Virus record (IMG/VR): IMGVR_UViG_3300037493_005727
Span: 133,091 to 190,250 of that record
DNA: 57,160 bases
Strand: one strand, 5' to 3'
Source of the DNA: a virus
Numbering within the stretch: the stretch's first letter is position 1; each line of letters begins with the position of its first letter. The position numbers and the translations under genes are program-made. The notes beneath the pieces were generated by a model. That model worked only from the letters and a program-made list of their open reading frames with translations, was not told the origin of the DNA and ran no database searches. Below, piece by piece: positions 46,152 to 47,398 of the stretch.

Positions 46152-46997
46152 ATGTTCTACCGCCTCGGACAGCATCATGCTCTCGCCGCATTAGGCCTCG
46201 AAAAGCTCGCGGCGATTCTACGCCCAGGGATTGGGGGTCCCGCGGCGGAGATTCAACGGCACGTCGACACCGGTAACTTCGCTGAAGCTTCCAGGCTGGC
46301 TCGGCAACCAGGGGCTTTCGTGGATCAGCAGCACCTCAGCCCTTTTGACCTCGGACACCACATCCGGCATCTCGGGGCGGGGGTCGAAGGCAGCGCGGAA
46401 CTGATGGTCCACCCCCAGCACGGCGTCAACGCCACGAAGATCTACGACCCTCGGGGGATCACTAAGCGTCGTGGGGTTGAACTCAAAGGGGAGGCGTTCA
46501 ACCGTATCCAGAACTTCGAACCCAGGTCTACCAGAGATCGTGAGCTACAGCAGCATCTCGTACGCCTCCTTGGGCAGACAACGCCTCCCAGGCCGACAGA
46601 CGCCGGGATCCCGACGGTTCTCCCAGCCCACCACTTCGAATTCGTGCCTGGGCATCACGGGGATCATGTTCTACCCGCTGACCAGGAAGCCCGTTTCACG
46701 ACGCTGCAGGGGCAAATGCGCGACTTCATCCCCAGGGCTACCGGCGGTATGACGGTCCACGACACCAACAAGCGGGACAACTGGATCATCGGTCCTGATG
46801 GCCGCCCCACTCTGGTCGATTTCTCCCTTACCAGCGCTCCGGGCGCTTCTTGGGGGGACATCCAGCAGAAGGCGCTCCCCGGGGCGGACCCTAAAACAAT
46901 CTTCGCCCGCCACAGGGAAGGGTTTGATTCCGCCGAACCGTCCGACGACCCACGCTACGCCGAACCCCCGCCGGTGAGGGCGGGGGCCCGACGTTAG
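46152..46997 (+). CDS. protein-kinase-like fold protein with N-terminal FY-G motif
   Basis: 'LGAGVEGSAEL' (Gly loop-like), 'NATKIY' (VAIK-like), 'VHDTNKRDNWII' (catalytic loop-like), 'LVDFS' (DFG-like). N-terminus 'MFYRLGQHHALAALGLEKL'. Confidence 0.45.
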   Translation: MFYRLGQHHALAALGLEKLAAILRPGIGGPAAEIQRHVDTGNFAEASRLARQPGAFVDQQHLSPFDLGHHIRHLGAGVEGSAELMVHPQHGVNATKIYDPRGITKRRGVELKGEAFNRIQNFEPRSTRDRELQQHLVRLLGQTTPPRPTDAGIPTVLPAHHFEFVPGHHGDHVLPADQEARFTTLQGQMRDFIPRATGGMTVHDTNKRDNWIIGPDGRPTLVDFSLTSAPGASWGDIQQKALPGADPKTIFARHREGFDSAEPSDDPRYAEPPPVRAGARR

Positions 46998-47398
46998 CTT
47001 TCCAGCGTTGAAACCCAGCTGCGCAGCTTTTCTGGGGTCAGCTCGTTGAAGGGGACACGGGTGACATCGAACCCCGCGGCCGCCAGGATCGTCACCATCT
47101 TCATGGCTCCGGGGGTGTTCATGGAGTGCACGAGAACGGGGACTCCTTGATCGAGCTTCTGCGCAACGGCCTTTGCCACGACGCCCCCGTTGGTGAAGGC
47201 GCCGTCAGCCGTGACCCCCTGCTTGTACAGGTCGTAGTCCAACAGGACCCCGTGGTAGGTGTCCGCCTCGTCCTTCTTGAGGATGGCCAACGCAGCGCCG
47301 CCTGAACGCGCCCAGACCACCCGCACCTCTTTGGGGAGGTGCGCCGTGAAGAAGGCATGCCGGTCAGAGTCATCCTCGACCAGCAGGAGGCGGATCAT
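46994..47398 (-). CDS. stand-alone response-regulator receiver (CheY-like) domain
   Basis: ATG 47398 'MIRLLLVEDDSDRHAFF', 'HGVLLDYDL' (phospho-acceptor Asp position), 'PVLVHSMN'. The conserved Lys position appears as 'TRVPF'. Confidence 0.65.
   Translation of the reverse strand: MIRLLLVEDDSDRHAFFTAHLPKEVRVVWARSGGAALAILKKDEADTYHGVLLDYDLYKQGVTADGAFTNGGVVAKAVAQKLDQGVPVLVHSMNTPGAMKMVTILAAAGFDVTRVPFNELTPEKLRSWVSTLES

Follow-up and report, generated by a model that had tools for sequence, protein, structure and literature searches.

Receiver domains of the cREC family (PF20274) form a divergent group. They never occur alongside histidine kinases and are linked to genes for RNA repair and for the processing of NAD and ADP-ribose (ADPr); they are predicted to open 2′,3′-cyclic phosphates or ADPr cyclic phosphates, and up to 18% of jumbo phages encode one (PMC7824862, PMC9503650). 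In the arrangement described as the 'type 2' cREC neighbourhood, the gene order is Rnl1-cREC-kinase-SIR2-MazG (PMC9503650). Kinases are also joined with enzymes for 2′,3′-cyclic or 3′ phosphate ends in Trl1, the tRNA ligase of fungi and plants, and in T4 Pnkp, where the kinases are P-loop enzymes. Phage T7 encodes an early-gene, hyperpromiscuous protein kinase (T7K, gp0.7) with broad anti-defence action (PMC13645617). Here we describe a locus in which a cREC gene lies tail-to-tail with a gene for a protein-kinase-fold enzyme, in a 57,160-nucleotide stretch of viral DNA (IMG/VR record IMGVR_UViG_3300037493_005727, positions 133,091 to 190,250) that we call the window. We are highly confident of the identities of the two proteins as a kinase-fold enzyme and a cREC. 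We propose that together they make up a conserved mobile cassette within the leftward, early operon of an uncultured high-G+C phage, serving as a counter-defence or RNA-damage module, a reading to which we would give about an even chance. cREC was already known as a predicted family; what is new here is the kinase component in a cREC-centred phage module. The central features are the following open reading frames (ORFs) and their junction.

46152–46997, plus strand: kinase-fold ORF, ATG start, 281 amino acids (aa)
46994–47398, minus strand: cREC ORF, 134 aa from the ATG at 47398, with a GTG-extended version to 47461
46994–46997: TTAG shared by the stops of both genes, which are convergent and have no intergenic spacer

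The preliminary description of this DNA had reported convergent genes with TTAG as their common stop, and the coordinates and sequence bear this out. The kinase gene ends with TAG at 46995–46997 and the cREC gene with TAA, the complement of TTA at 46994–46996, so that the junction reads ...CGA CGT TAG CTT TCC... on the plus strand. Every motif quoted in that description (VHDTNKRDN, VDFS, LLLVEDD, LLDYDL, LVHSMN and TRVPF) was found in the translations. The kinase gene is the sole plus-strand gene inside a leftward array that spans from ~49.5 kb down to ~30 kb, and the cassette sits close to the start of this leftward operon, among the first genes past the divergence point. No other long ORF is present at the kinase locus. 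The plus-strand ORF is a real gene, since its codon-position GC content is gene-like (0.71/0.48/0.70), it has 52 homologues, and of the codon changes that separate it from a 98%-identical relative on contig L002, 12 are synonymous and 5 are not.

A word-based search with the 281-aa protein returned a single relative, 98% identical. The 52 homologues came from an exhaustive HMMER search (E < 1e-3), and with the window protein they make up an alignment of 53 sequences (A1). Residues G91, K96, E163, D204, N210 and D223 are invariant in A1, and G75, G77 and G80 are nearly so. These positions correspond to the blocks of a protein kinase: a GxGxxG loop at residues 75–80 (G75-A-G77-V-E-G80, with its glycines kept in at least 90% of the 53 sequences), Lys96 in a β3 segment of the form [VA]-[RT]-K, the hinge residue Glu163 within E-[YF]-V-x-G, a catalytic loop running from Asp204 to Asn210 (family consensus D-[VIL]-[RH]-x-x-N), and Asp223-Phe-Ser at the Mg-binding motif K-x-[VI]-D-[YF]. 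E108, a candidate for the αC glutamate that would form a salt bridge to the β3 lysine, aligns with the glutamate of the family's 'RKE' motif in helix 106–120, a column that is less than 90% conserved. The core is preceded by an N-terminal helical extension and followed by a low-complexity tail.

The best match of the A1 profile was Mycobacterium tuberculosis PknB (E = 2.7e-7), followed by PknA, StkP, ROCK1, Chk1 and MEK, and the window protein alone gave a weak match to an NCBIfam Ser/Thr kinase model (residues 175–228, E = 1e-3). An AlphaFold2 model built from A1 had a mean predicted local distance difference test score (pLDDT) of 78.6 and a predicted template modelling (TM) score of 0.72, with blocks between residues 30 and 230 mostly above 90. 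The model is bilobal, with a β-sheet and helix αC in the N-lobe and helix αE, the catalytic loop and the Mg-binding loop in the C-lobe. The chain continues for only about 58 residues past D223, with pLDDT below 50 over positions 236–265. A Foldseek comparison with viral models returned generic giant-virus kinases only, at TM ~0.4. Together, the profile matches, the NCBIfam match and the model support a kinase fold with an intact set of catalytic residues, as the preliminary description had proposed. Judged from its sequence and model, the 281-aa protein is a stripped-down Hanks-type enzyme that is predicted to be catalytically competent and belongs to an undescribed phage-associated family.

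The comparison with the Hanks kinases PknB, PknA, PknE and StkP shows both what has been retained and what has been lost. The Gly-rich loop, β3 lysine, catalytic Asp/Asn and DFG aspartate are all present, whereas the core is only ~165 residues long, there is an extra conserved N-terminal helical extension, the catalytic loop is of the form D-x5-N, and neither an APE motif nor a Pfam Pkinase match was found. The minimal atypical kinases RIO1/RIO2 and Bud32 scored lower than the Hanks kinases and have no sequence-level relationship to the window kinase; RIO kinases differ further in having an N-terminal winged helix of their own as well as a flexible loop. The window protein had no match in Pfam or PHROGs, and the threshold of Pkinase (PF00069) was not reached; among the 53 family members, one matched Pkinase (E = 4.9e-4). 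The family as such is not represented in Pfam, PHROGs or NCBIfam, and tblastn with a typical member found no match in deposited phage genomes. It comprises at least 52 clusters at 50% identity and has so far been seen in metagenomic sequence only, where large viral contigs carry several of its members; some members bear GNAT, DUF5661 or DUF6321 domains. The repertoire of kinases known from phages, which is still small, grows with this family.

The preliminary description had also noted an N-terminal 'FY-G tag' in the kinase. The motif is present, but it is not a tag shared across the window, as no other window protein carries it; it is part of a helix conserved in the kinase family ahead of the N-lobe, M-x-Y-x-x-G...A-L-x-K-[FY]-A-A-R-x-G-[LM]. 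A 236-aa ORF on contig L003 (1108–1815, plus strand) begins MLSFAYSNGAHAAACAFGIEK, which resembles this helix, and the remainder has no match to the kinase hidden Markov model (HMM).

The product of the minus-strand gene matched cREC_REC (PF20274) at E = 2e-7 and 32 bits, above the Pfam cut-off of 27, and scored 12.8 bits against the canonical Response_reg family (PF00072), below its cut-off of 30.2. A profile search found 126 relatives, nearly all of them stand-alone proteins of ~140–160 aa, and almost all of the 120 listed carry PF20274. D54 and H91 are invariant over 116 sequences, and E8, D9, R13, D56, S92 and N94 are kept in at least 90%. The protein has a CheY-like (βα)5 receiver fold, and its conserved active-site pocket combines acidic residues with His and Ser. 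The receiver-fold assignment made earlier stands, as does the observation that the canonical lysine position is altered (TRVPF): the lysine at the end of β5 is replaced within V-T-R-V-P. The accompanying statement that receivers are uncommon in phages does not apply to this domain, given the frequency of cREC among jumbo phages. A PDB profile search did not find a solved cREC structure, its best matches being ordinary REC domains at E ~1e-3, and this cREC subfamily had no relative in IMG/VR (alignment scan) or in deposited phage genomes (tblastn). The window protein is predicted to be a non-signalling receiver fold that hydrolyses 2′,3′-cyclic RNA ends or ADPr-type or nucleotide cyclic phosphates. 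It resembles the described cRECs in its score above the Pfam threshold, its fold and acidic residues, its phage origin and the absence of a histidine kinase from the 80 window ORFs scanned. It differs in two respects: in the window we recognised no partner of the RNA ligase, sirtuin, Nudix, Macro or WYL type, and the conserved gene next to it encodes an enzyme of the protein-kinase fold. Stand-alone phage proteins that look CheY-like should be compared with cREC before signalling roles are proposed for them.

Co-occurrence of the pair in relatives had been set as a check on the earlier proposal, and it holds: kinase and cREC genes lie tail-to-tail in five lineages, with junctions that range from a 95-nt overlap to a 1–3-nt gap.

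Lineage i (window, L001 and L002): reference; 4-nt overlap
Lineage ii (L093): kinase P0006 with 40% and cREC P0057 with 56% identity to the window; 95-nt overlap
Lineage iii (L003, L004 and L013): cREC 59% identical; kinase truncated at the end of the contig (E = 9e-5 with the family HMM); 33-nt overlap
Lineage iv (L070 and L078): cREC 43–44% identical; kinase HMM E = 1e-37; stops abutting
Lineage v (L098): kinase P0045; cREC HMM E = 1e-52; stops 1 nt apart

At every locus with visible flanks, a lone inverted gene, that of the kinase, interrupts a co-directional array. A phmmer comparison of flanks, covering L093, L078 and L003 and leaving out L098 and L070, found only the kinase and cREC in common with the window, apart from a homologue of orf150 in L093. 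Within lineage i, identity between the window and L002 is 98.4% for orf123 (a neighbouring ORF), 98.0% for the kinase and 98.0% for part of cREC, a block covering 45753–47199, and drops to 84% for a nearby P-loop kinase and 73% for orf150. As the flanks are far more diverged, this suggests that the orf123/kinase/cREC block was recently exchanged or is under strong joint constraint. Deposited phages had no DNA match to window positions 44000–50000. A protein-kinase-fold partner of cREC is not mentioned in PMC7824862 or PMC9503650, and a literature search found nothing further.

A second connection of the kinase family to phosphodiesterases was seen in the lineage of P0010, P0016, L008 and L010, whose members carry a 2H domain at the N-terminus, in which the HxTL motif occurs twice. 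This domain matches 2_5_RNA_ligase2 (E = 1.6e-13), Acb1 (E = 2.8e-5) and TIGR02258, an RNA 2′,3′-cyclic phosphodiesterase model (E = 1.4e-7), and from these matches it is predicted to perform the same chemistry as cREC. Linkage of one kinase family to two unrelated predicted phosphodiesterases suggests a connection between phosphorylation and cyclic phosphates of RNA or nucleotides in phage–host conflict, which, if confirmed, would amount to new biology and might give the kinase fold a new enzyme activity.

A third enzyme with bearing on the cassette lies two genes from the kinase.

45103–45672, minus strand: P-loop kinase of the AAA_33 family (Pfam E = 6.9e-9; phrog_2071 E = 2.4e-21)

This protein is a candidate polynucleotide or nucleotide kinase. 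Homologues were found by tblastn in 462 deposited phages, including the V5-like coliphage vB_EcoM_TH18 (30% identity, E = 2e-10), where the genes run Rnl1-type RNA ligase, cREC (E = 1.7e-15), AAA_33 kinase, SIR2, ligase ... MazG-like. The P-loop kinase of the window is thus homologous to that of the published type 2 cREC neighbourhood. In a Pakpunavirus, the AAA_33 homologue adjoins an Rnl1-like ligase. Matches to the Clostridium thermocellum and other bacterial Pnkp proteins were weak and confined to the P-loop region.

We hypothesize that early in infection cREC and the AAA_33 kinase would clear products or signals of host defences based on RNA or NAD, with cREC opening a cyclic phosphate and the AAA_33 kinase phosphorylating a 5′-OH, while the kinase-fold enzyme would carry out ATP-dependent phosphorylation of a hydroxyl group in the same conflict. 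Because its family is tied to one or other predicted cyclic phosphodiesterase, cREC (in trans) or 2H (in cis), the kinase probably takes part in a conflict over cyclic phosphates, and we infer that this conflict probably concerns RNA cut by host ribonucleases or immune signals derived from nucleotides or ADPr. A protein Ser/Thr substrate is favoured, since Hanks kinases are the best matches in both sequence and structure and since position D+2 of the family loop D-[VIL]-[RH]-x-x-N is basic, which is also true of the Ser/Thr kinases among eukaryotic protein kinases. By analogy with T7 gp0.7, the likeliest targets would be serines or threonines of host defence, RNA-processing or translation proteins. 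T7K is likewise an early phage kinase, its loop FDMHSGNIM resembles the family pattern D-[VIL]-[RH]-x-x-N-[MIV], and it is a plausible functional analogue of the window kinase. Membership of one family was rejected, as the hhalign match (E = 0.07) covered 17 columns of the catalytic loop only; moreover, the window has VDFS (family VDY-x-P) where T7K has DPV, and T7K, which includes a C-terminal shut-off/DNA-binding domain, has no link to cREC or 2H.

Since the peptide-binding part of the C-lobe is missing, the substrate may instead be a nucleic acid or nucleotide. One form of this idea is that a kinase fold was recruited for a cyclic-phosphate module, where it would phosphorylate an RNA end or an immune signal with a phosphodiesterase as its obligatory partner and with its expression set by the antisense overlap; we consider this unlikely. 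Were it true, the enzyme would be the first polynucleotide or nucleotide-signal kinase outside the P-loop fold and would offer the first biochemical handle on cREC. A compact conserved partner gene also provides a two-protein system for reconstituting cREC, a domain that is widespread in phages.

As for expression, the transcripts of the two genes must overlap, because their 3′ ends have no spacer and the kinase gene is antisense inside the operon, and this overlap may couple, time or balance the expression of kinase and cREC. One structural element was found at the junction.

46966–46987: 8-bp G+C hairpin with a perfect stem, CCCCCGCC-GGTGAG-GGCGGGGG, in the last kinase codons and 7 nt past the cREC stop

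When the region 46930–47060 was folded, the minus strand gave z = -2.0, and the hairpin has no T-tract. It may be a 3′-end or terminator-like element of the window, but it was rejected as a feature of the cassette because it is not conserved beyond the window and L002.

Several observations weigh against a conserved counter-defence or RNA-damage module. Some concern the locus itself: the hairpin is absent from the other four lineages, no sigma-70 promoters or intrinsic terminators above chance were found around the pair, and no RNA ligase, SIR2, Nudix or Macro gene was recognised by Pfam among 80 window ORFs. A depletion of Ser, Thr and Tyr in early proteins like that associated with T7K was not clear-cut (13.4% versus 18.6%) and was set aside as uninterpretable without matched controls. 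Others concern the proteins. The window catalytic loop, HDTNKRDN, has one residue inserted relative to the family consensus. The kinase model has no confident activation segment, P+1 loop or helices αF–αI, and no APE motif is recognisable, which makes canonical peptide binding doubtful. cREC was experimentally uncharacterised as of 2022 (PMC9503650). Finally, the coupling is far from general. Of the 80 metagenomic loci found for this cREC subfamily, 52 offer 700 nt or more of sequence on the downstream side of cREC, and the kinase is present at 2 of these (L070 and L078), with a partial copy in L013, where the flank is shorter; the coupling is therefore clade-specific. Most kinase family members have no cREC neighbour (L008–L012, P0007, P0012 and P0042), and the 2H fusion is confined essentially to one lineage.

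Other readings of the pair were weighed alongside this one. The kinase-fold enzyme and cREC could heal RNA or nucleotide ends in the manner of Trl1, the former phosphorylating, for example, 5′-OH RNA and cREC or 2H opening the 2′,3′-cyclic phosphate. This is possible but unlikely. It draws on the ties of the kinase to cREC, its neighbour in five lineages, and to the fused 2H domain, two predicted cyclic phosphodiesterases that are unrelated to each other; these ties recall Trl1 and T4 Pnkp in that a kinase is joined with an end-processing enzyme, as a neighbour or in the same polypeptide. The missing peptide-binding elements of the C-lobe, the RNA-repair contexts published for cREC (PMC9503650) and the nearby homologue of the cREC-operon P-loop kinase also fit. 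However, the best kinase matches are protein Ser/Thr kinases, the AAA_33 protein could itself do the 5′-kinase step and would make a second kinase redundant, and most members of the kinase family have no phosphodiesterase partner of any kind. To our knowledge, no polynucleotide kinase has the protein-kinase fold, which also counts against end-healing; the kinases of Trl1 and T4 Pnkp differ in this respect, and a nucleic-acid substrate is purely hypothetical here. An RNA ligase (Rnl1, Rnl2 or RtcB) was recognised neither among the 80 window ORFs (E ≤ 1e-3) nor among the precomputed Pfam matches of L001, so a complete heal-and-seal set was not found.

The opposite view, that the two are independent early or anti-defence genes in an accessory hotspot with no shared function, would account for a coupling that involves a minority of both families and for the split of the kinase-linked cRECs into two separate clades of a neighbour-joining tree, and phage early regions do gather unrelated accessory genes. 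We nevertheless regard it as quite unlikely, given the identical orientation and spacerless junction in five lineages whose flanks are otherwise largely unrelated, the parallel kinase-2H fusion, and a block that is conserved against divergent flanks.

The same layout could instead reflect an antagonistic or regulatory pair, in which the kinase phosphorylates a serine or threonine of cREC, or cREC limits the kinase, and the antisense overlap works as an expression toggle, either toxin/antidote-like or as a timing device. Hanks kinases phosphorylate some response regulators; the convergent layout with overlapping or abutting stops is strictly kept in all five lineages, the kinase is a single inverted gene in a co-directional array, and the kinase/cREC block is better conserved than its flanks. 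Yet most kinases have no cREC and most cRECs no kinase, and toxin-antitoxin pairs are normally co-transcribed, which leaves this reading very doubtful. The preliminary description had suggested a hijack or short-circuit of host two-component signalling, or a receiver acting as a phosphate sink, and the receiver fold does keep D54 at the phospho-acceptor position and the acidic pair E8 and D9. On the other side, the receiver does not reach the Response_reg threshold and is a cREC, a family that never occurs with histidine kinases (PMC7824862); it has lost the conserved lysine and gained the invariant His91; and none of the 80 window ORFs scanned was a histidine kinase or Hpt. Its partner, a Hanks-type enzyme and not a histidine kinase, cannot drive phosphotransfer to aspartate. 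We consider the signalling idea extremely improbable: the kinase/cREC cassette is not a two-component system.

The wider neighbourhoods of the two families are varied. Of the loci L008–L012, which hold typical members of the kinase family, four lie on viral contigs of 157–197 kb, the exception being L012 with its 6-kb contig. No more than 8 kb from these kinases, the scan picked up domains of multisubunit RNA polymerase (Rpb1/Rpb2) along with a fibre protein of the GP4 type; the polymerase domains are probably encoded by a 1953-aa ORF at 10307–16165 of L011, and this phage group is largely unannotated. PHROGs gave essentially no matches for the neighbours of typical kinases, and the idea of adjacency to a portal gene was dropped. 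Around the cREC subfamily (L013–L092), the commonest neighbour was a P-loop ATPase of ~830–1000 aa, present at 13 loci. Rarer neighbours resemble Macro, CYTH, ClpP and DnaB/RecA, by eye only and without a family-model scan. It seems that cREC serves in several distinct conflict systems.

The remaining features of the window are the following.

45753–46124, minus strand: ORF of unknown function (orf123), 123 aa, divergent from the kinase with 27 bp between the starts
47395–47727, minus strand: 110-aa ORF directly upstream of cREC, its stop overlapping the cREC start in ATGA at 47395–47398
48667–49449, minus strand: possible 2H phosphoesterase, 260 aa, with two HHVT[LI] motifs in its C-terminal half (HHVTLAF and HHVTISC)
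30039–30776, minus strand: calcineurin-like metallophosphoesterase with a GNHE motif (Metallophos E = 4.5e-11), at the far end of the leftward array
41795–42694, minus strand: DnaJ co-chaperone-like protein, 299 aa, with a C-terminal J-domain (E = 6.4e-7), in the early array
53605–57159, running past the window end, plus strand: first part of a very large ORF, which measures 1973 aa in L001, an identical Logan contig

Neither Pfam nor PHROGs had a match for orf123, and the 110-aa ORF had no family match. The ATGA overlap suggests that the 110-aa ORF and cREC are translationally coupled, and a strong Shine-Dalgarno-like run, GGAGAGGAGG, lies upstream of the cREC start. The 260-aa ORF matched tRNA_lig_CPD at E = 0.053 only in Pfam and phrog_36523 at E = 2.8e-10, with no PDB or NCBIfam match. 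We rejected it as a relative of the kinase-fused 2H type, since hhalign showed no similarity, and its status as a 2H protein is tentative. Calcineurin-like metallophosphoesterases occasionally sit with cREC in published neighbourhoods. A Pfam scan of the 80 gene-like ORFs of the window found 14 families only, among them cREC_REC, AAA_33, Metallophos, PTH2, DnaJ, Peptidase_M15_4 and Laminin_G_3. The PTH2 peptidyl-tRNA hydrolase match (E = 1.6e-5) belongs to one ORF, and a tRNA-related enzyme of this kind would suit a conflict centred on translation. The very large ORF, which has no recognised family, comes after lysis/fibre-like genes with the Peptidase_M15_4 and Laminin_G_3 domains.

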